From NCBI GenBank assembly GCA_000092065.1, contig CP000586.1: DNA of 64,000 nt, one strand, 5' to 3'. Source of the stretch: Ostreococcus lucimarinus (Eukaryota). Positions 3,099-34,226 of this stretch are shown piece after piece. The notes under the pieces were generated by a model. That model was not told where the DNA came from. It did not search any database and worked only from the letters and a program-made list of their open reading frames with translations. A program made the translations under genes and the position numbers. The stretch's first letter is position 1, and each line of letters opens with the position of its first letter.

Positions 3099-3402
3099 AC
3101 CGCCAAGACTGGCGACTGACGTCCTCGACGAGCGTTTCGCGTCGCGGCGGTCGATGTCAAACCTCGTCTCGCGTGTACTTTACATCTTTAACCCGCGTCC
3201 ACCGGTGGTGTGATCGCCGTGGAATCACCACCAGATCGACGCAATGTTTAATAACGTCACGATTCACACTCTCTGGCGCCACGTCTCGCCGCGTCGCCGC
3301 GCGCGTTCGCCCGTTCGGCGATGGTTCCAATCGACACACACGGACCTTTGAATCCGAGTCACCGACGCGCGGAATCGCGGGTTCATTCCCTCGCGCGTCA
3401 AC

Positions 3403-4082
3403 ATGTTCACCGTTCAAGCCACGCAAATCGTCACCACGGTGCGCATCGACGCACGCTCTCGCGCCCGTTCGTTTCGGCGCGTCACACCGCGGCGCGCGCG
3501 CGACGCGCGCGTCGCACGACGCCGCGACGATCATCGGAGATAGCGTATCTGGACGATCCCGAACGATCGAGACCGACGCCGCGGGACGCGCGCGCGAACG
3601 GCGCGTCGCGCGACGAAGCGGCGCGAATAAATACCTCGCGATGCGCTCGCGAGGCGAACGAACGCGAAGACTGACGCGCGACGCGCTCGCGATCGCAGGC
3701 TAAGGCGCCGACGACGAAGCCCGCGAAGCGCGTCCAAAAGGCGGCGTCGCTCGGCTTGGCCGCCGTCGTCGCGGTTTCGCTTCAAGTCGCCCCGGCTCGC
3801 GCCGATCTCACCTCCGATTTGCTCGCGAAGACGGAAGCGAACAAGGAGTTGAACGATAAGAAGCGCGCCGCGACGTCGAGCGCGAACTTTGAACGCTCTC
3901 GCACCGTCACGGATGGGTTTTGCAACTTTCCGCAAAACATCTTCGGGTGCGAAAACGCCGCGGAGAAGGGCGACGTCAAGTTTTTGTCCGACGATTTGAA
4001 GGTCGAGTGCGAAGGCACGGATGCCGGTAAAATCTGCGCCAGCAAGAACTCTGGTTCGTACCCGTCCTTCCTCGGTTTGTAA
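3403..4082 (+). CDS. psaN: Photosystem I reaction centre subunit N (PsaN) precursor; join(3403..3438,3699..4082)
   Basis: Exon 2 carries the PSI-N signature KTEANKELNDKKRAATSSANFERSRTVTDGFCNFPQNIFGCENAAEKGDVKFLSDDLKVECEGTDAGKIC, preceded by a lumenal targeting domain (KRVQKAASLGLAAVVAVSLQVAPARA, AxA site). No in-frame ATG lies upstream of exon 2 (stop at 3672). Inferred exon 1 is ATGTTCACCGTTCAAGCCACGCAAATCGTCACCACG|GTGCGC (MFTVQATQIVTT). Its intron has the window-typical donor GTGCGC, branch ACTGAC (3669-3674) and acceptor CAG (3696-3698). Confidence 0.7.
3439..3698 (+). other. intron (psaN), 260 bp
   Basis: GTGCGC donor, ACTGAC branch point 25 nt before cgcAG acceptor. Contains the in-frame stop that otherwise truncates the ORF. 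Confidence 0.55.
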
Positions 4083-4102
4083 GCGTGCGAGCGCGGAGCC
4101 CA

Positions 4103-4122
4103 AACGCGTCGACGCGTTGTAA
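4103..4122 (+). promoter_or_regulatory. 3' end signals of psaN: 16-bp perfect palindrome AACGCGTCGACGCGTT immediately followed by TGTAA poly(A) signal
   Basis: Palindrome 4103-4118; TGTAA at 4118-4122, 36 nt after the stop codon. TGTAA is the chlorophyte polyadenylation signal. Confidence 0.45.
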
Positions 4123-4386
4123 CTAAGTCACGCAACCGGCGACCCAGAATCGGAATGAGCGAACCGACTCGCGCGTCACATCGCCGCGTCAGCACCGCGC
4201 GTCTTCGCGCGCACGCGTCTTCGCGCGCTCGCAACTCGATCGAACGCGTCTTCACGCGCGTCGCGCCACGCTCCGCGCGCGCGCGTCGCCGATTCGCGCG
4301 CGGACAACGCCGCCGCCGCCGGCTCATCGATTCGTTCGTTCATTCGTTCGCGCGCGCATCGATCCATCGCTCGCGACGCGCGTTAG

Positions 4387-4677
4387 ATGCCCAAGTACGG
4401 CGTGCACGTGAACAAGTACTACGTCCCCGACGACGTCCCGACGTGGGCGAAACTGAACGTGAAACAAGCGAGCAAGAAGATTGCGAAATCGCGAAGCCGA
4501 GAGACGAAGCAAGCGCTCGGGAAAAAAGCCAAAGCGGCGGTGAAACTGGCGAACCGTAAGGGCGGAAGAGGCAAACGAAATCCCGCGAACGCGGATTTTA
4601 AAAAGAATTTAAAGCTCGCGAAGGATTTGAAGAAGAATAAACGTAAAGGACGTCAGGCAAAAAGACCGGGGACGTAG
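4387..4677 (+). CDS. small lysine-rich basic protein (96 aa), unknown function
   Basis: ATG at 4387. MPKYGVHVNKYYVPDDVPTWAKLNVKQASKKIAK...KRKGRQAKRPGT. The K-rich composition is hard to get by chance in ~70% GC DNA. Ends with TAG only 39 bp before, and in frame with, the next gene. Confidence 0.45.
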   Translation: MPKYGVHVNKYYVPDDVPTWAKLNVKQASKKIAKSRSRETKQALGKKAKAAVKLANRKGGRGKRNPANADFKKNLKLAKDLKKNKRKGRQAKRPGT

Positions 4678-4716
4678 GCGAACGAAGGAACGAAGGAGCG
4701 AAGGAACAAAGGAACG

Positions 4717-25352: not shown

Positions 25353-25581
25353 CGTCTTGAGCATCCTCGAGCGTCGACGCGCGCGCGGCGAGGACCGACG
25401 CGAATCCACGGTCGACGCGCGATCGTGTGACCGACGCCTCGGCGACCGCTGGGCACTGTGACGTTTCACATTTTTCACGTTTCGAGGCGCGGTCCCGCGC
25501 GCGCGCGGGCGCGAGAGGACGAAACGCGAGGCGCGCGCGCTGGAGAAAATATTCCGTCGCGCGGGCGCGCGCGCGGCGGCG

Positions 25582-26250
25582 ATGCGGCGCGCGGCGGCGG
25601 CGGCGGTGGCGGCGTGCGTCGCGGCGGCGGCGTTCGTCCGGTGTTCGAGGCGCGAAACGGTGGACGTCGTCGAGCGCGCGCGGGTGCCGTTCGCGTTCGG
25701 CGCGCTCGGGCCGGTGGGAACGGCGCGCGAGGGACTGCGATATTACGACGCCGCGCTCGGGGCCGCGTTGTCGTCGTCGCCGCGCGCGCAGAGCGCGCTC
25801 GAAATCGGGTGCGTGAAACCGGCGTTCGCGCGACACCTCTCTTGGATTCGCGATAAGACGTGCGTCGCACCGTATTACGCCGGGTACAAGACGACGGCGG
25901 GCGACGACTCGATCGACGCGACGGACGACGTGCGGTACGTCGTGGGGGATTTCGCCAACGCGAGCCTCGCGCCGTCGTACGATTTGTGTCTCTGCATGCA
26001 AGTCTTGGAACACTTGGATTTCGACGCCGCGAGCGATTTCGTGCGTCGCATGTTCGAGCTGTGCCGTGTGTCCGTCGTGTCGGTGCCGTACAGATGGCCG
26101 GAGTGCGGATCGACGTGCTCGCACAAGCAACACGCCATCGACGAGTCGACGCTCGCTCGATGGAGCGGCGTCGACGCGCCCGCGACGACGACCATCGTGC
26201 GCGAACGCGGCGGCGGCGCGGCGCGCGCCATCGTGGTTTACGACGCATGA
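25582..26250 (+). CDS. hypothetical protein with class-I SAM-methyltransferase-like motifs and N-terminal signal/transit sequence
   Basis: ATG 25582; MRRAAAAAVAACVAAAAFV...; motifs ALEIGCVKP (motif I-like) and YDLCLCMQVLEHLDFD (motif II/III-like). Confidence 0.45.
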   Translation: MRRAAAAAVAACVAAAAFVRCSRRETVDVVERARVPFAFGALGPVGTAREGLRYYDAALGAALSSSPRAQSALEIGCVKPAFARHLSWIRDKTCVAPYYAGYKTTAGDDSIDATDDVRYVVGDFANASLAPSYDLCLCMQVLEHLDFDAASDFVRRMFELCRVSVVSVPYRWPECGSTCSHKQHAIDESTLARWSGVDAPATTTIVRERGGGAARAIVVYDA

Positions 26251-26297
26251 GTCGCTCGAACGCGTATGTTTCTCTTTTAGTGACTACATTTTAGCGT

Positions 26298-26708
26298 TTA
26301 GGTTTGCGCCTTGGTCATGACTTGCGGCGTCGCGGCGCGCATGACTTCGGCGAGGATCGCGACGGCTTCGTCCGGGGACGACGAAGAGAAGCGAAAAGCG
26401 TCGCGCGCGGGATACTTCTTACCGAGCTCGACGTTGCGCACGTTCGTCCGTCTACCATGGATCAACCGAGAGCGCGGTGTCGTGAGTTGATGCGCGTCCG
26501 GCGTGAAGATCATTCCCGCCGACCGAACGGTGTAATCGTGAAACTTGGCCGTCTCGTCGTCGACGTGCGCCGCGAACCCGTCGTGTCCGCCGAGACAAAA
26601 GCACCACGGCTCGACTCGCGTCGCGTCGCGCCGCCGCGCGATCGATCGCTCGATCGCCCGAAGACGCGCGTCGCCGTACCGCGCGGCGCGTCGCGACGTC
26701 GCGACGCG
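26298..26708 (-). CDS. protein-like ORF without its own start codon, in frame with and immediately downstream of the TGA of the J-domain ORF
   Basis: ...RVATSRRAARYGDARLRAIERSIARRRDATRVEPWCFCLGGHDGFAAHVDDETAKFHDYTVRSAGMIFTPDAHQLTTPRSRLIHGRRTNVRNVELGKKYPARDAFRFSSSSPDEAVAILAEVMRAATPQVMTKAQT*. Coding-like composition (F,Y,K,M,H,N,Q) while the antisense is R-rich junk. Only Met is at 26513. Confidence 0.35.
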   Translation of the reverse strand, partial: RVATSRRAARYGDARLRAIERSIARRRDATRVEPWCFCLGGHDGFAAHVDDETAKFHDYTVRSAGMIFTPDAHQLTTPRSRLIHGRRTNVRNVELGKKYPARDAFRFSSSSPDEAVAILAEVMRAATPQVMTKAQT

Positions 26709-27377
26709 TCAGCGCGGGCGCGCCGCGGCCGCCGCGGCCGACGCCTTGAACGCGTCGCGAACCGCGCGACTGGTCGCGTTCACGCGGTCCCTGATCTCGC
26801 CCAAATCCTCCTCGCGCGCGAGGTCGAGATACTTTGAAAACTTGTCGGGGTGCCAGCGCACCAACTCCTCGCGAAGCCTCGCGCGCGCGTCGCCTCTCGG
26901 CGCGTCCGACGTCAGAAAATCGCGAAGCGTCGCCGCGCGCGACGTCAGGGCGTCGTCGACGAACGGGAAATCTTTCGCCCGCATCGCTCGCGCGGGCGAT
27001 TTTCGCGCGCGCGCGCGCTCCAATCTTCGCCACGCGCGTCGATACGCGTCGATCGTCGTCGCCCCGGTCGTCGCGTCCGCGTCGCCGCGCGCCCCTCTCG
27101 TCGTCCCGTTCGCGCGCGTCGTTTCGCTTTTCCGCGAATCATTGTCTCTCGCGTTTCGTCTCGACGTCGCTTCTCGTCGTCCCGCGTCGTCGCGCGCGCG
27201 TCGTCGCCTCTCGCTCGCCGCCCACACGCGCGCTCGATGCGTTTCGTCGCCCAGCGGTCCCGTCGCGCTCCACTCGCGCTCGGCGCGCGCGTACGTCGCC
27301 CACGCGTCGTCGGCGCCCGACTCGAGCGCGCGTTCGTCGCGCAACCGCGCCTCGAACGCGTCGTCGTCGAGAATCAT
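26709..27377 (-). CDS. J-domain (DnaJ-like, HPDKF type) protein
   Basis: ATG 27377 (MILDDDAFEARL...). C-terminal DFLTSDAPRGDARARLREELVRWHPDKFSKYLDLAREEDLGEIRDRVNATSRAVRDAFKA has J-domain helix II/HPD loop/helix III (as in HscB-type HPDKF). Stop TGA at 26709-26711. Confidence 0.5.
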   Translation of the reverse strand: MILDDDAFEARLRDERALESGADDAWATYARAEREWSATGPLGDETHRARVWAASERRRRARDDAGRREATSRRNARDNDSRKSETTRANGTTRGARGDADATTGATTIDAYRRAWRRLERARARKSPARAMRAKDFPFVDDALTSRAATLRDFLTSDAPRGDARARLREELVRWHPDKFSKYLDLAREEDLGEIRDRVNATSRAVRDAFKASAAAAAARPR

Positions 27378-27504
27378 CGCGCGCGGTCGACGGCGGCGAC
27401 GTACGCGAGCGCCGAGCGCGACGCGCGGGTCCCCGCTTACGCGTCGCGCGGTCGACGCGGTCGCGCGTCGCTCGCGTCGACCGCGCCGCACTGCGCGACG
27501 CGAC

Positions 27505-27583
27505 ATGCCGTCGGCGTCGACGTCGTCGTCGATCGACGATTCCGCGCCGCTCGCCGCGATCGCGCGCGCGATCGCGCGCGACG

Positions 27584-27615
<32 letters not shown>

Positions 27616-28260
27616 CGCGACGCCGACGGTATCGGCGCGCGCGCGATCGCGGCGCGCCTGGACGCGACGGCGGAATCGTCGCAAAGAAAAAATGCGCCGA
27701 CGGACGCGTCGAAACCGCGACCGCGACCGCCGAAACCGGATTGGGGGTGCGCGCGGTGCGGGACGCGCGTGAACGTCGTGCGGTGGCACAGCGCGGACGC
27801 GAAGTGGTACTACCATCACAGCCGCACGCGCATGTGCAGGCGGTGCGAACGCGAACGCGAGGCGCGAGAGCGCGGAAGACGCGAGGCGGCGGCGACGACG
27901 ACGACGACGACGCGCGACTACGACGACGACGACCACGACGACCACGCCGACGACGACGGGACGGCGAGCGACGACGACGGGACGGACGACGACGCGCGCT
28001 TCGGCCGGGTCGCGCGAGCGACGCGACGACGGCGGTGCGGCCAGTGCGGCTCTCAGACGAACGTGGAGACGTTCGACGCGAAGACGCGACGGTGGACGTG
28101 GACGCGACCGAAGACGCGCATGTGCGAGGGGTGCGACGAGGCGTACGAGGACGCGGCGCGCGCGTACGAGGCGATTTTCGCGAGCGAGACGCGCGCGCGC
28201 GACGGCGAACCGGCCCTCGCGCCGGCGCCGCCGACGTTCGTGTACGACGTCGCGGATTAG
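27505..28260 (+). CDS. protein with two tandem Cys4 zinc-ribbon-like repeats
   Basis: ATG 27505 (MPSASTSS...). Internal repeat GCARCGTRVNVVRWHSADAKWYYHHSRTRMCRRCE / RCGQCGSQTNVETFDAKTRRWTWTRPKTRMCEGCD (CxxCG-x-NV-x9-W-x6-TRMCxxC), separated by an acidic D/T-rich linker. Confidence 0.5.
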
Positions 28261-28291
28261 AGACGTTTAATGACGATACATTTGATGATAG

Positions 28292-29416
28292 ATGTGCGAC
28301 GCGTTCGAAGCGCGTCGGCGCTCGGGCGCTTCGGCGTCACTCGTCGACGCGTCCCGCGCGATGGCGTCTCGCGCGGCCGTCGACCGCGTCGTCGCGCGCG
28401 CGCGCCTCGCCCTCGAGCGCTGCGAGCTCGCGGTGCCGATCCATTTCGACGCGTGCGCGCGCGCCGCGCTCGCCGACTCCTCGCGCTGGGTCGTCGCGGA
28501 CGACGTCGACGCGTCGCGCGCGCACCCGCTCGTCGTCCCGCTCGCGCGCGCGGCGACGACGACGCGCGCGCCCGTCGTCCTCGGCGTCGCCGTCGGCGCG
28601 CGCGCCGTCGACGCGCGATTCGCGTCCAGCGGCGGGTTCTACGCGCGCGCGCGATCGGCGCAGGCGTCGACGCCGTGGGTCGTCGCGGGCGCGCGGGGCG
28701 CGCGCCTGCTCGCGCCGTCGGCGACGGCGATGCTGCGACGCGCGCTCGCCGAGGACGAGCGCGCGCACGGCGTCGGCGGCGGCGCGGCGACGGCGGCGTG
28801 CGGAAGCGACGCGCTGGACGCGTACGCGCCGGGAGAGCTGACGAATTCGCCGTACGCGACGCGCGTCGAGGCGTTTCTGACGCGACGCGTCGGGCGATTT
28901 CTGGACGCGGACGAAACGCTGATCGAGCGACACGTAGAGCGAGGGGACGTCACGAGCGCGCTGGTGACGGCGGAGTGGTGCGCGGACGGGCCGTACGCCG
29001 GGTGGTCCAGGCCGCACGCGGTGCACGCGGCGACGCTGGCGCGATTCGGACGCGCGGCGGAGGCGAGGGACCAGGCGCGCGTGGCGCTGAGCGTCGGACC
29101 GTGGTGGACGATGGGAGAGGACGGCGCGATGATGACGCAGATGCAAACGCTGAGCGGGTACGCGGGACGAAGCGCGGCGGACGTGCGGAGGACGCTCGAG
29201 GGAGGGGACGTGGACGCGGGAGGCGCGAGCGGCGGCGAACCGGCGCCGACGAGGGAGGAGACGGCGCTGAAGCGCGCGATGGACGCCATGGACGCGGTGG
29301 CGTGGGGGGAGCGCGGTGAGACGTGGGCGTCGGTTCGCGAGCGCGTCGCGGAGAGCCTCGACGAGGCGGGGTTGCGCGCGCTGTCCGCGCACGTGCTCGC
29401 GCCTTTGCGCGAGTGA
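28292..29416 (+). CDS. hypothetical protein (374 aa), unknown function
   Basis: Only frame here with non-junk composition (W,Y,M,E mix: ...AEWCADGPYAGWSRPHAVHAATLARFG...VGPWWTMGEDGAMMTQMQTLSGYAGRSAADV...). ATGs at 28292 and 28361. Confidence 0.45.
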   Translation: MCDAFEARRRSGASASLVDASRAMASRAAVDRVVARARLALERCELAVPIHFDACARAALADSSRWVVADDVDASRAHPLVVPLARAATTTRAPVVLGVAVGARAVDARFASSGGFYARARSAQASTPWVVAGARGARLLAPSATAMLRRALAEDERAHGVGGGAATAACGSDALDAYAPGELTNSPYATRVEAFLTRRVGRFLDADETLIERHVERGDVTSALVTAEWCADGPYAGWSRPHAVHAATLARFGRAAEARDQARVALSVGPWWTMGEDGAMMTQMQTLSGYAGRSAADVRRTLEGGDVDAGGASGGEPAPTREETALKRAMDAMDAVAWGERGETWASVRERVAESLDEAGLRALSAHVLAPLRE

Positions 29417-29510: not shown

Positions 29511-32500
29511 TCATTCTAATTCTATAACCTCGCGATCGACGTCGTCGCCGTCGCCGTCGCGACGCCGCGCGTCGAGCGCGCGTCGAGCGCGTCCATCCGG
29601 TCGCTCGAGCAGCGCGCGCAATTCGCCCAGGGTCAAGCCTGCGTCCTTGCCCTTCTTCTGCAGGGCGACGTCGCTCGCGATGTCACTCATGGCGTCCGCG
29701 CGTTGGCGCGAAAAATTGTGCACGTTTTCTTCAATCGTGTCGCGAATGAAAAACCTGTGGACGCACGTCGGGCGCGTTTGTCCGATGCGATCGACGCGCT
29801 TGATCGCCTGGGCTTCCATTCCGGGATCGAGCACGGGCTCGAGCAGTAACACGTGCTGCGCTTCGGTGAGGTTCAAACCGTGCGCGCCACGCTTAAGCGG
29901 CAGCAACAGAACGTTGCACGCGGCGTCGTGCTTAAATGTATCGATGACGTCGCGAAACTTTGGACCAGAGACGCCGCGAACGAAGCGAATTTCATTCGCG
30001 CGCATCGCTTTTTCGACCACGTCCAGGACGTCGTCCCATTCAGAAAACACTATCATTTTAGCGTCATCCTCACGCAACAGCAAATATCTCAGACGTCGAA
30101 TGATCGCTTCAATTTTTGTGCCCCAGCTCCCGGAGACGAGCACTTGTTGTTCCCCGCCGAGGAGGTCGGCTTCGACGCCGAGCAGATCCGTAAGAAATCG
30201 CACGTCGCCTCCTTTACCGCGCCTCACGTAATCAGCCGCATCTCGCACTCCCGTGCGATTGTCAACGTTGTTCACGTACATCAACTCTTCGACGTACGCA
30301 CGAACGCGACAGGTGACGCACGACACTCTCTCCCCGTGCTCGCGTCGGACCAAGTCGAGAGCGCACGAGACGCACGTTCGGTGACCGCAAGGGAAAACAC
30401 ATATTTCAGCGTTAGTTCCCGCGAATGACACCATACAGACCGGACAATCAGTTGCTATAGTGTTTTCTCCGCCAGCGTTCTCCGCGCGAAGATTGTCCTC
30501 CAGATACTTGAGTTGAGACATCGCTTTGCGCAAATCCTTTTCGTACACGAGCTTTTGCGTCGTGTAGTTGACGCTCAAACCCTCCACTTCGTCTCGATAG
30601 ATGACCGACCCTCGGAGACCCTCGGGCACGGGATCGTTTTGCATCAACCAACCCGTGAACCGATGGAAGCCGTGCGGTGGAAGCTCGTGATCGTGCCGAG
30701 TGCGTATTCTCGCCACCGCCATGTCGAGCTCGTCGCGAGACGCGACTTCTTCCCTCTGTTGGACGATGAGCTGCGATATTTTGTAAAATTCCTTGCGCAT
30801 CTCTTCAAGCGCAGCGACGTGCGCCGCGGATTCTTCAACATACGAACTGGGTGCACTCAACGAATGCACCATGGGGACTAAAATACGAAGCACGGCTTCC
30901 ACCGAGCTCGCTCCACCGCGGTTGGTTTCCTCTCGTTCATACTTCCGACCGTAACGAGAAACGCGTGGCACAAACGTTTCCCTGTTCTGACTATCGTCGT
31001 CATTGGTGCGATTTTGCTGAAGCCGCAGGTTGCGAACACCGAATATCTTTGCCTCAAACTCCGAAAGTAACGGTTCGGCCTTGCAAAACATACACACCAC
31101 GCCGGGAAGGGCAAAGTCCGTATCTTTACGGCAGTTTGAGCACGAACCGATCGTACGCACATCATCTTCACTCGGATTTTCAACCCGTACGCGGATTTCT
31201 GAGACAGATTCCATGACTCTGGCGCGTGTGTTGTGAATTTCTTCCAAATCGTTCGCCATCGTCATCTTCAAACCGTCGGTGCTTCGAAAAGGTGCTTGCT
31301 TGTCTTGCCAGCGTCCATCCAAAGCTTCAAGCACACGCGCGAGTATATTCGACGCCGCAACATCTTCTGCGGTTCCTTCTGACGTCATCGCATGATCGAG
31401 GATGAATAGCCACCACGTGAATTTGTCCACGCGCGCGATCGAGCCAAACGCTAAATGCTTCGCCACGTTTGCACTCGTAACTTCGAGTTCGCGCGTCGCT
31501 GCAGGGACGCCGCCAGCACGCTGTGCCATGTATGCAGCTCGCTCTAAATTGGCTTCTTTTTCCAAATCATCGTCCCGTATCGTCGGTGCTATTATCTTGC
31601 CTTTTAGTAACTCTTTGTTCGCCTTGACTTCGCGCATGGCCAAGTTGAGATTGTGAAGCGCGTGAAGTCTTTGAAGGGTGTCCATCCGAATGCCTCGCTG
31701 CTTCCCCTCACCTTCGAGCTTAAGGACTTCACGATACGTTTCTATGACGATGTCGAAAGTTCCTAAAATCCAAGCGATCCCAGCGAGGGCGTTGAGCGAA
31801 AACGCCACGAGACGCTGCGCCTCTTCGGCTTCGATGCGAGCTCTTTCGACAAGCTTTTCAGAAATTTGCTCCATCGTCAACACGTTAGCGCCGGCGCGAA
31901 TACCGCCAGCAAGACCGTGTGATCCCGCTTGCGGATGATCACACGCTTGACGCAATCGCAACAAAGGTCCCATGACGCTCGATGCTTTGTTCGGTGGAAG
32001 GCTTTCGCTGTCGGCGTGACGGATGAATCGTCTCAGAGTCGCGTTGGCGTCGGCCGCACAGTTGGCGTATTGTCGGGAGTACCAGTGCTGCTCCACCGCG
32101 CTTGACCGCAACCACGTGGCGACTTCACCTTGGGGAGGAATTCCTAGTTGTCGCTCCATGTCAGCGCGCGAGTTTCGCCACATCAAGCCCTTCAAAATTT
32201 TATGAAGAAGTTCGCGCGCGGAGACGTCGCCACTCATGTACGGTATTTCAATCATACGTCGCCACCAAAAGTCACCATGTTGAAACGGAGACACCATCAG
32301 AAACGTTAACAGACCGAATATATCCCCTAAACCTCGCGAAATGGGCGTGCCCGTGACTGCCCATCGGTGCACTGTGGGCAGCCGGCGCACCATCTCGGCG
32401 GCTTTTGACACCGTGGACTCGACCATTTGCGCCTCGTCCAGAACAACGCGCCACCACTTCAATCGAGTCAGTGGTGTCGGCACCACTTCATACTTCTTTT

Positions 32501-34226
32501 CATATCGTCGTGCTCTCTCAGCGCCGGCCAAGCCGTGTCCATTGGCGGTGTCGATGTCGATTTCAGTACGAAGCGTGTCGTACGTTGTCAGTACGATGTC
32601 GGCGTCGGCGAGCTCCTTGGCGGAAAACACGCCCTTCATCGAGCCCCCAGCGCCACTTCGCTTCGACTGTCCCTCATATGTGATGATTTTCAGCGTGCCC
32701 GGGCGTACGTGTTGCTTGCACTCGTCTCGCCATTGTTTGATGATGGCGCTCGGGCAGACGACGAGCGTGGCGCCGCACGTCTCGTCTACTGTTTCGCTCG
32801 CGTGCGCGGCGATGCATTTACCACACGTGAAATCTTTGAGCTTTCGTCCCCGCTCTTCCTCAGACATTTTCATAAGTTTTATCTCTTGATTTCTGCTTTG
32901 GGCTAGCCCCACGCATCTTGCGTGCATCCACGTCTCGCACTTTTCACATTCGATCCACAAACCGTCGTAGAATGGGTCGTCATGTCGCGCACCGCACGGG
33001 CAGCACACCTTCACGGGCGCTTCATCGTCTTTAATGAGCACAACATCATCGATTTCCTCTTTCATGTCATCTGTCATGGGCGGAGGGACAAATTGAGATC
33101 GACTTTGCGCGCGCCGCGGCTCGCGATTCGCCAACACGAGCATGATTACTTCCACCGTTTTCCCAAGACCCATCTCATCGGCCAAGATACCGCCGCTCAC
33201 AGATTCAAAATCGCATTCGAATCGCGTTTTCGTGAGATGACCCGAGTACGGATTTATGTAGCCACCTCCCTCCGGGAGTTCGCGCCAAAGCGGATGCAAC
33301 TCTGTCTTGTCGACGTCGCCGCCGCGTTTCGCCGACAACGCCCCAGCCGGCGCATCCTTCGCTCGTTCTCTCGCCAGCATCCATCCCACGGCTTGTTTCT
33401 GATATGATCGCGGCGTCGGCAAGAGCGCGTAGTAGTCTCGATCGGCTTCTGGACACGCGTTCTCGTTCGGTTTCACGGCTTCAAAAATACCCGCCAAATC
33501 CAAACCGCCGTCAAATCTACCGGGCGCTTCTCCATCGATACCATCGTCGCACAATCCGGCGTAAACGACCGCTAGCGCCTTAAACACCTTCGCGAACCCT
33601 TTAGTGACGCACCCACCGGCCGTTTGCACCTCCGAACACGCCTCGAAAGCTACCGGTTTCATCTTCACCGTCAACCGTCCGCCCTCCGCGCCATCCTTCG
33701 TCAACCGCGCCGTCGCCATCCCTGACCGCATCACCACCCTAAAAGCCTCCGCGTTCACCCCATCCACGCGATACACCGCATCATTCTCACACTTAAACCG
33801 CAGCGACATCGCGTCCGGCGTCGACGGCGCCGCATCCACTTCCACTTCGCCGCCGACGAAGTCGCCCCGCGCGCTCGTCGTCGCCGTCGCCGTCCCATCG
33901 CGCGTCTCCCCGCGCGTCCGACGCGACGCGCGGACGACCGCGACGACGGTCGACGCCGATGCGTTTGTCACGCTCGCCGCGCCGATCCGCGTCGCGACCG
34001 CGCTCCCGAGCGCGACGCCGTCGTCGTTTTCATCGTCGATGGCGAAATTAATCAAACCGTCGCGCGGCGACGCGGCGACGCGTTTCTTCGCGCGCGACGC
34101 GTCGTTCGCCGCCGCGCGCTTCTCGCCGCGCGGCGCGACGTCCGGACGCCGCGCGGACGAGGGGGGGTCGACGTCCACGCCCGCGACGCGCACGCGCGTC
34201 GGGTTTGGATTTTTCGCGCGAGGCAT
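29511..34226 (-). CDS. SHPRH: SNF2-family helicase with PHD and RING fingers (SHPRH-like E3 ligase/helicase), single 1571-aa exon
   Basis: ATG at 34226. SNF2_N (LLPTPRSYQKQAVGWM...ILADEMGLGKTVEVIML), PHD (CPCGARHDDPFYDGLWIECEKCETWMHARCVGL), DEAQ box (VVLDEAQMVES), RING (CPVCMVSFAGTNAEICVFPCGHRTCVSCALDLV), Helicase_C (KMIVFSEWDDVLDVV...LLLPLKRGAHGLNLTEAQHVLLLEP...RVDRIGQTRPTCVHRFFIRDTIEENV). Confidence 0.9.
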   Translation of the reverse strand: MPRAKNPNPTRVRVAGVDVDPPSSARRPDVAPRGEKRAAANDASRAKKRVAASPRDGLINFAIDDENDDGVALGSAVATRIGAASVTNASASTVVAVVRASRRTRGETRDGTATATTSARGDFVGGEVEVDAAPSTPDAMSLRFKCENDAVYRVDGVNAEAFRVVMRSGMATARLTKDGAEGGRLTVKMKPVAFEACSEVQTAGGCVTKGFAKVFKALAVVYAGLCDDGIDGEAPGRFDGGLDLAGIFEAVKPNENACPEADRDYYALLPTPRSYQKQAVGWMLARERAKDAPAGALSAKRGGDVDKTELHPLWRELPEGGGYINPYSGHLTKTRFECDFESVSGGILADEMGLGKTVEVIMLVLANREPRRAQSRSQFVPPPMTDDMKEEIDDVVLIKDDEAPVKVCCPCGARHDDPFYDGLWIECEKCETWMHARCVGLAQSRNQEIKLMKMSEEERGRKLKDFTCGKCIAAHASETVDETCGATLVVCPSAIIKQWRDECKQHVRPGTLKIITYEGQSKRSGAGGSMKGVFSAKELADADIVLTTYDTLRTEIDIDTANGHGLAGAERARRYEKKYEVVPTPLTRLKWWRVVLDEAQMVESTVSKAAEMVRRLPTVHRWAVTGTPISRGLGDIFGLLTFLMVSPFQHGDFWWRRMIEIPYMSGDVSARELLHKILKGLMWRNSRADMERQLGIPPQGEVATWLRSSAVEQHWYSRQYANCAADANATLRRFIRHADSESLPPNKASSVMGPLLRLRQACDHPQAGSHGLAGGIRAGANVLTMEQISEKLVERARIEAEEAQRLVAFSLNALAGIAWILGTFDIVIETYREVLKLEGEGKQRGIRMDTLQRLHALHNLNLAMREVKANKELLKGKIIAPTIRDDDLEKEANLERAAYMAQRAGGVPAATRELEVTSANVAKHLAFGSIARVDKFTWWLFILDHAMTSEGTAEDVAASNILARVLEALDGRWQDKQAPFRSTDGLKMTMANDLEEIHNTRARVMESVSEIRVRVENPSEDDVRTIGSCSNCRKDTDFALPGVVCMFCKAEPLLSEFEAKIFGVRNLRLQQNRTNDDDSQNRETFVPRVSRYGRKYEREETNRGGASSVEAVLRILVPMVHSLSAPSSYVEESAAHVAALEEMRKEFYKISQLIVQQREEVASRDELDMAVARIRTRHDHELPPHGFHRFTGWLMQNDPVPEGLRGSVIYRDEVEGLSVNYTTQKLVYEKDLRKAMSQLKYLEDNLRAENAGGENTIATDCPVCMVSFAGTNAEICVFPCGHRTCVSCALDLVRREHGERVSCVTCRVRAYVEELMYVNNVDNRTGVRDAADYVRRGKGGDVRFLTDLLGVEADLLGGEQQVLVSGSWGTKIEAIIRRLRYLLLREDDAKMIVFSEWDDVLDVVEKAMRANEIRFVRGVSGPKFRDVIDTFKHDAACNVLLLPLKRGAHGLNLTEAQHVLLLEPVLDPGMEAQAIKRVDRIGQTRPTCVHRFFIRDTIEENVHNFSRQRADAMSDIASDVALQKKGKDAGLTLGELRALLERPDGRARRALDARRRDGDGDDVDREVIELE

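Follow-up and report, generated by a model that had tools for sequence, protein, structure and literature searches.

The window analysed here is a stretch of 64,000 nucleotides of the Ostreococcus lucimarinus genome (GenBank contig CP000586.1), and the genes of interest lie on its minus strand. There, an ORF of 222 aa runs from MILDDDAF at 27377 down to 26712, ends with ...AVRDAFKASAAAAAARPR and is closed by a TGA at 26711-26709, after which the same frame stays free of stops through 136 sense codons until a TAA at 26300-26298. In the other direction, the frame of this upstream ORF is open further 5', to an ATG at 27506. Re-reading of the sequence confirmed the layout described in the first-pass annotation, namely the in-frame TGA and the open continuation of the same frame to 26298. 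Two details had to be corrected: the continuation, given there as 137 codons, has 136 sense codons plus the stop, and it holds three Met codons instead of only one, the first of which (26513-26511) opens an ORF of 71 aa. The features of the locus are collected in Table 1.

Table 1. Features of the locus in window coordinates, with the evidence for each
Feature	Position	Strand	Evidence or remark
Upstream gene, including stop	26709..27377	-	222-aa protein with invariant C-terminal RWHPDKF (J-like, NFKBIL1-like tail)
TGA, read as the genuine stop of the upstream gene	26709..26711	-	Invariant in alignment A1; anchor CGCCCGCGCTGA in every spanning conspecific locus
Stretch derived from the intergenic spacer and from the 5' leader of the downstream gene, 93 nt, 78% GC	26616..26708	-	Matches long alleles L001-L015
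Putative deletion junction	26612..26620	-	Break at 26616/26615; GCGA microhomology at 26619-26616
3' remnant of a small gene with a predicted PH-like domain, 105 codons (VEPWCFCLGGHDGF...KAQT) and TAA	26298..26615	-	ORF comparison, tblastn
Longest ATG-started ORF in the remnant, 71 aa (MIFTPDAHQ...)	26298..26513	-	ORF listing
Convergent methyltransferase-like gene	25582..26250	+	Weak Pfam Methyltransf_11 match; syntenic in all loci

The upstream protein gave 44 homologs in a protein search. The conspecific ones fall into 25 clusters of 211-229 aa, mostly of 222 aa and with the N-terminus MILDDDAF (ATG at 27377), and the distant ones, with identities from 69% down to 44%, are 208-406 aa long and carry additional N-terminal sequence. 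In an alignment with 20 homologs (A3), the C-terminus lies 3-11 residues past AVR[DE]AFKA in all of them except one with 18 residues, so that no C-terminal extension is seen among the 20, and RWHPDKF is invariant in the 21 sequences that include the upstream protein itself. The TGA is present in every conspecific metagenome contig spanning the site, and in the sister species (contig L028) the upstream gene stops with TAG, five codons earlier. Judged from these comparisons, the upstream gene can be taken as complete and the TGA as its real stop. At the N-terminus, the orthologs of 322-406 aa carry about 100-150 additional residues, a region which is weakly ankyrin-like (a PDB profile search gave a weak ankyrin match for it, 1s70_B, E=0.011), and no trace of this region was found in the window by tblastn.

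The first-pass annotation had called the upstream product a J-domain protein, a label which neither Pfam nor a PDB profile search supports. Like a J-domain (DnaJ, PF00226), the protein has an invariant HPD, within RWHPDKF, and this tripeptide is flanked by predicted helices (164-175 and 177-188) in an AF2 model of low confidence (pLDDT 62, pTM 0.22). Unlike a J-domain, it finds no support in profile searches: Pfam DnaJ has no match at E<=1 in the window protein or in its orthologs P0042, P0033 and P0030, a profile of 21 homologs retrieves no J-domain chain from the PDB at E<=10, and Foldseek against the PDB gives nothing better than E=3, with a model of too little confidence for the fold to be judged by it. 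There is also a likeness to the C-terminal region of NFKBIL1, in which a segment FP..(~30 aa)..LR...RWHPD[KR]F...V.A.SQA can be aligned; the ortholog P0042 matches the tail of human NFKBIL1 in BLASTP with E=9e-8, a value to be read as a lead and not as a test. The longer orthologs resemble NFKBIL1 in their weakly ankyrin-like N-terminus as well, whereas the protein of the window differs from it in having no such N-terminal region of about 100-150 residues. A literature search found no paper joining NFKBIL1 with the term "J domain".

The downstream stretch is best understood by comparison with metagenome contigs that show synteny with the window at 98.5-99.8% identity and therefore come from the same species. 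Their gene order is SNF2 helicase, PAB-like, zinc ribbon, upstream gene, downstream ORF, convergent methyltransferase-like gene, VHS/GAT, APC3 and proteasome. In the commonest allele, the downstream ORF encodes 228 aa (P0049) and starts at an ATG of its own, 92 nt beyond the TGA, in a frame that differs from that of the upstream gene; in L006, for example, the upstream ORF lies at 3240-3908 and the downstream one at 4001-4687, with the 92-nt spacer between them and in different frames. The exact 228-aa product is present in 135 blocks of the searched collection. Relative to the conspecific contigs, the window lacks 368 nt (369 in comparison with L001/L002), and columns 950-1318 of alignment A1 are absent from the window only. 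The segment begins at the ATG of MAIAYFNG... in L001-L003, L006-L015, L030, L033 and L039, and what is missing from the window runs from the TG of this ATG to just before GTCGAGCCGTGG; the 93-nt stretch that follows the TGA thus consists of the 92-nt spacer and, as its last base, the A of the lost ATG. At 26627-26604 the window reads GACGCGACGCGA/GTCGAGCCGTGG, and the corresponding flanks of the long alleles are ..GACGCGACGCGA/TGGCG.. and ..GACGCGCGGCGA/GTCGAG... This exact 368-nt junction occurs in none of about 40 other loci examined and is known from one assembly.

What remains beyond the junction shares about 98-99% identity with the 3' portion of the 228-aa ORF (P0049/P0001) and differs from the consensus at two sites only, both of them non-synonymous (V to A and N to D). 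When the whole 136-residue continuation is used in a protein search, only three protein clusters are matched, all metagenomic and nearly identical to one another, and the remnant contains no Pfam domain. The same 71-aa product is called on contigs where the 5' part is absent or unassembled. On the other side, the stop of the methyltransferase-like gene is 47 nt from that of the remnant, and this gap between the convergent stops leaves almost no room for a 3' UTR element.

Intact relatives of the downstream gene, collected by a HMMER scan and then a profile search (P0063, P0065 and P0067-P0075), are stand-alone ORFs of 213-293 aa. Their neighbours are YchF, His_Phos_1, or ATP-synthase gamma with CDC48, and never the orthologs of the upstream gene. 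In these proteins of about 250 aa, an N-terminal region is followed by a hydrophobic segment rich in Cys and by a predicted PH-like domain at the C-terminus. The predicted fold of the intact protein (pLDDT 60.7, pTM 0.64) is a seven-stranded beta sandwich with a C-terminal helix cap, as is characteristic of PH-like domains; it is unlike known PH-like or GRAM-like domains, e.g. the Lam6 PH-like domain (PDB 5yqr), in having no Pfam match, and the model is moderately confident. A further difference is that no more than the final third of the domain survives in the window. In tblastn with the intact ortholog P0074, the window retains just the last ~118 aligned residues (about 175-292), and homology to the real gene begins after strand 4, at VEPWCFC, which means that strands 1-4 are missing and that a complete PH-like domain is not encoded by the remnant; the 71-aa ORF would encode only the last strand and the C-terminal helix. 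We infer that the remnant is non-functional, because strands 1-4 of the PH-like domain and any conserved start are missing. In the sister species, only a 74-nt spacer separates the upstream gene from the methyltransferase-like gene and no downstream gene is present there; the two genes of L028 are 69% and 93% identical, respectively, to those of the window. That the two halves should be unrelated genes in orthologs had been named at the outset as a finding that would speak against a single gene, and this is what the orthologs show.

On the whole, our reading, to which we give a probability of roughly 0.85, is that the minus strand carries two independent genes, head to tail, of which the upstream one is complete and the downstream one is reduced to a 5'-truncated remnant that has come into frame by chance. 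On comparative grounds, the downstream stretch and the upstream gene are to be regarded as two genes, not one. Among the options raised in the first-pass annotation, it is the last, a downstream ORF that has lost its start, which agrees with the 368-nt deletion seen against the conspecific contigs. A 368-bp deletion between short direct repeats (GACGCG..GCGA, with 4 nt of exact microhomology) removed the ATG together with about 122 codons and, since 368 equals 2 mod 3, left the other 105 codons (VEPWCFC...KAQT) reading in the same frame as the upstream ORF. With the GC-rich 93-nt spacer being stop-free, this shift of frame gives the look of one ORF split by a single TGA. The deletion itself may have originated by replication slippage or by microhomology-mediated repair.

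An open in-frame stretch behind the TGA is not beyond chance for a GC-rich block of this kind. In the block at 22.5-29.5 kb, 25% of all inter-stop intervals are of 136 codons or more; the 31 leader codons from the TGA to the junction have a probability of 0.71 of being stop-free given their composition (78% GC); and the sharing of one frame by the upstream ORF and the downstream part is a 1-in-3 event. Like a unitary pseudogene produced by microhomology-mediated deletion, the remnant has lost its start and N-terminal coding sequence between short direct repeats, its remainder is intact without a start, and intact alleles exist in the same species. Unlike such a pseudogene, it happens to share the frame of the gene before it, with a GC-rich spacer free of stops in between, which mimics read-through, and several independent deletions affect the same segment in the wild population. 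A strain-specific 5'-truncated remnant is in itself an ordinary kind of event.

The alternatives that make one gene of the locus differ in how they dispose of the TGA. If it were read through, decoded as selenocysteine or produced by a sequencing error, a fusion protein of 358 aa would result, and the in-frame layout with its 136 codons without a stop is what such a reading asks for, as are the alleles of L001/L002 and L020/L023, which are likewise in frame with the TGA. We nevertheless regard it as highly improbable. The identical TGA in every spanning conspecific contig, the end of all aligned homologs of the upstream protein at this place, with no extended ones among them, and the different frames of the two ORFs in the common allele all argue against it, and on these points the option of one gene with a sequencing error or read-through, as first proposed, does not hold. 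Moreover, the downstream family is stand-alone elsewhere and the sister species has no such sequence, the 31 bridging codons are former intergenic DNA, and a quarter of the inter-stop intervals in the block are at least as long as the continuation. As for selenocysteine, which the first-pass annotation had judged unlikely, this judgement is upheld by the SECIS search: an Rfam scan of 25500-27800 has no SECIS match at E<=10, where 47 nt of 3' space are available, and an Rfam scan of the whole window at gathering thresholds gives neither SECIS nor any other family. Homologs that have Cys or Sec aligned at the UGA and continue beyond it were not found, 20 of 20 ending at or near the site. The window thus shares with read-through and selenoprotein genes a single in-frame UGA followed by an open frame, and is unlike them in that SECIS, conserved extension and Cys-aligned homologs are missing and the extension comes from a different gene. 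Still more improbable, to the point of being hardly credible, is a single gene in which an unconventional intron takes out the TGA and links the upstream ORF with a downstream exon. It would account for a downstream coding-like part without its own start, and a GGTACGG is found 27 nt past the TGA; this candidate donor, however, lies 3' of the stop, and the last 13 codons before the TGA contain no consensus-like donor. In 20 homologs, conservation of the upstream protein extends right up to its C-terminus. The downstream segment belongs, as its tail, to another protein family, one that stands alone and has an N-terminus of its own, and a joined protein is seen in no ortholog. The 368-nt segment, for its part, lacks GT..AG ends in any register that the GCGA allows and encodes conserved protein sequence, and with no usable donor before the stop the option of an unconventional intron has to be given up. 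We also considered the variable segment as an intron or introner-like insertion, its indels being of non-3n length, and rejected this, as P0063 and P0074 show conserved coding in shifted frames.

Two other readings leave the genes separate. One of them takes the deletion as an assembly artefact, the source genome carrying the ~560-nt allele with an ATG-started ORF and a GC-rich, locally repetitive stretch having collapsed; we hold this to be unlikely, with a chance that is still appreciable. Seven of the 10 contigs found via the 71-aa ORF have N runs exactly here, the TARA contig L037, at 99.84% identity with the window, breaks off inside the gene, and the exact junction was not found in the other loci examined. 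Against a collapse of the assembly graph stands the exact repeat at the junction, which at only 4 nt is far under any assembler k-mer. In addition, a gap-free deletion of 374 nt, at the GCGATCGATC repeat, removes nearly the same segment in two independent samples (L020 and L023), and a third deletion (171 nt shorter, in L032/L036/L038) is found in three samples; such gap-free deletions in independent samples show that real deletions do arise at the locus. The conclusion that there are two genes stands even if the junction of the window is an assembly artefact. The other reading, which we find quite unlikely, is that the truncated gene is still used, with translation beginning either at a non-AUG codon or at the Met at 26513 (71 aa) to yield a short functional C-terminal protein. 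The remnant is free of stops and frameshifts, and in a second, incomplete copy of this 3' part, located elsewhere, an in-frame ATG has been gained, opening an 87-aa ORF (MFECSAKFHNY...). Yet at least four of the seven strands predicted for the PH-like fold are missing from the fragment, the promoter-proximal leader is kept with no conserved start, and both differences of the remnant from the consensus are non-synonymous.

The N runs, of about 100 (L017-L019, L021, L022, L024 and L025), and the contig end (L037) lie exactly at this place in contigs from several studies, and the region is hard to assemble from short reads, by reason of either high GC or allele mixtures. The contigs with the 71-aa ORF were at one point considered as many independent deletion alleles; this was rejected, most of them being scaffolds with N gaps.

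In the wild population, the locus of the small gene is a hotspot of structural variation. Measured between the TGA and the MIFTP codon, no fewer than six length alleles are distinguished, of 563, 564, 392, 371, 195 (the window) and 189 nt, and three of these six (195, 189 and 564 nt) are multiples of 3 and place the downstream part in the upstream frame. The 189-nt allele (L020 and L023, two samples) is a different deletion from that of the window, within the GCGATCGATC repeat, and the 392-nt allele (L032, L036 and L038) is a third; three independent 5' deletions at short direct repeats are present among the length alleles. Comparison with P0074 by tblastn shows that in the common 563-nt allele the ancestral coding information lies in frames 3, 1 and 3, with two compensating frameshifts (a deletion of roughly 90 nt and a -1 change in a G run), and that between them its 228-aa ORF (L006:4001-4687) reads residues ~26-100, about 75 codons, out of the ancestral frame. 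By the same comparison, the 564-nt allele has a single frame from FWHEYD onward, and in the 371-nt allele an in-frame loss of about 99 codons is seen. The full ancestral protein is encoded in no conspecific contig among those examined. The length alleles, the independent deletions and the compensating frameshifts, together with the partial duplicate (98-99% identical) beside a Helitron and the mosaic copy that are described next, might point to recurrent structural change of the small PH-like gene under selection for loss or diversification, or by transposon shuffling, and not to neutral decay; we consider this unlikely, with only a small chance of being right.

A partial duplicate of the locus, 96-99% identical over ~326 nt (corresponding to L006:4434-4758 and to ~26227-26550 of the window), is found in L031, L040, L029, L034 and L035, in another context and behind a common leader of ~250 nt. 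It contains the last 85 codons of the small gene, the 47-nt spacer and the last 9 codons of the methyltransferase-like gene, with a potential ORF of 87 aa. Just upstream of it, in L035 (3665-10711, +), L029 and L034, there is a Helitron RepHel ORF of 2349 aa (Helitron_like_N, DUF6570 and PIF1 helicase). The flank of this element ends ...AACTAACTAG/TATAAAAAA, compared with the empty site ...ACAAAA/TATAAAAAA in L031 and L040, which would fit a CTRR 3' end inserted at an A/T site. A RepHel gene was searched for in the window and is absent from it. Another related sequence is the mosaic contig L041 (1-1680), ~87% identical to the locus, which holds the only intact copy of the small gene seen (P0074). 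Its colinear pieces are zinc-ribbon gene fragments, intact P0074, 117 nt of the 3' end of the methyltransferase-like gene and 62 nt of VHS/GAT, and it could represent either a captured block or a segmental duplicate that has degenerated.

For annotation, the TGA should be kept as a real stop and the 136-codon continuation treated as a truncated remnant or pseudogene, not as part of a read-through, selenoprotein or intron-containing gene. More generally, when two coding-like stretches of a GC-rich genome are parted by just one in-frame stop, this says little in favour of recoding. The structural polymorphism of the small gene in wild populations offers a modest lead for the population genomics of gene loss.

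The base composition of the surrounding DNA also deserves mention. Plus-strand ORFs of 177-663 aa at 26304-28841 of the window, long, Arg-rich and antisense to both genes, are artefacts of the GC content. Of these antisense ORFs, only the 3' part at ~27700-28260 (+) looks real; it resembles a double zinc-ribbon protein, matches Pfam DZR weakly and is called in syntenic contigs as well. At ~30-33.5 kb the GC content falls to 50-57%, coinciding with an ORF of 1571 aa for a SNF2/SHPRH-type helicase (29511-34226, -), the neighbours of which are at 65-80% GC, and a second GC dip, at 21.0-22.0 kb, falls within the APC3-like ORF.
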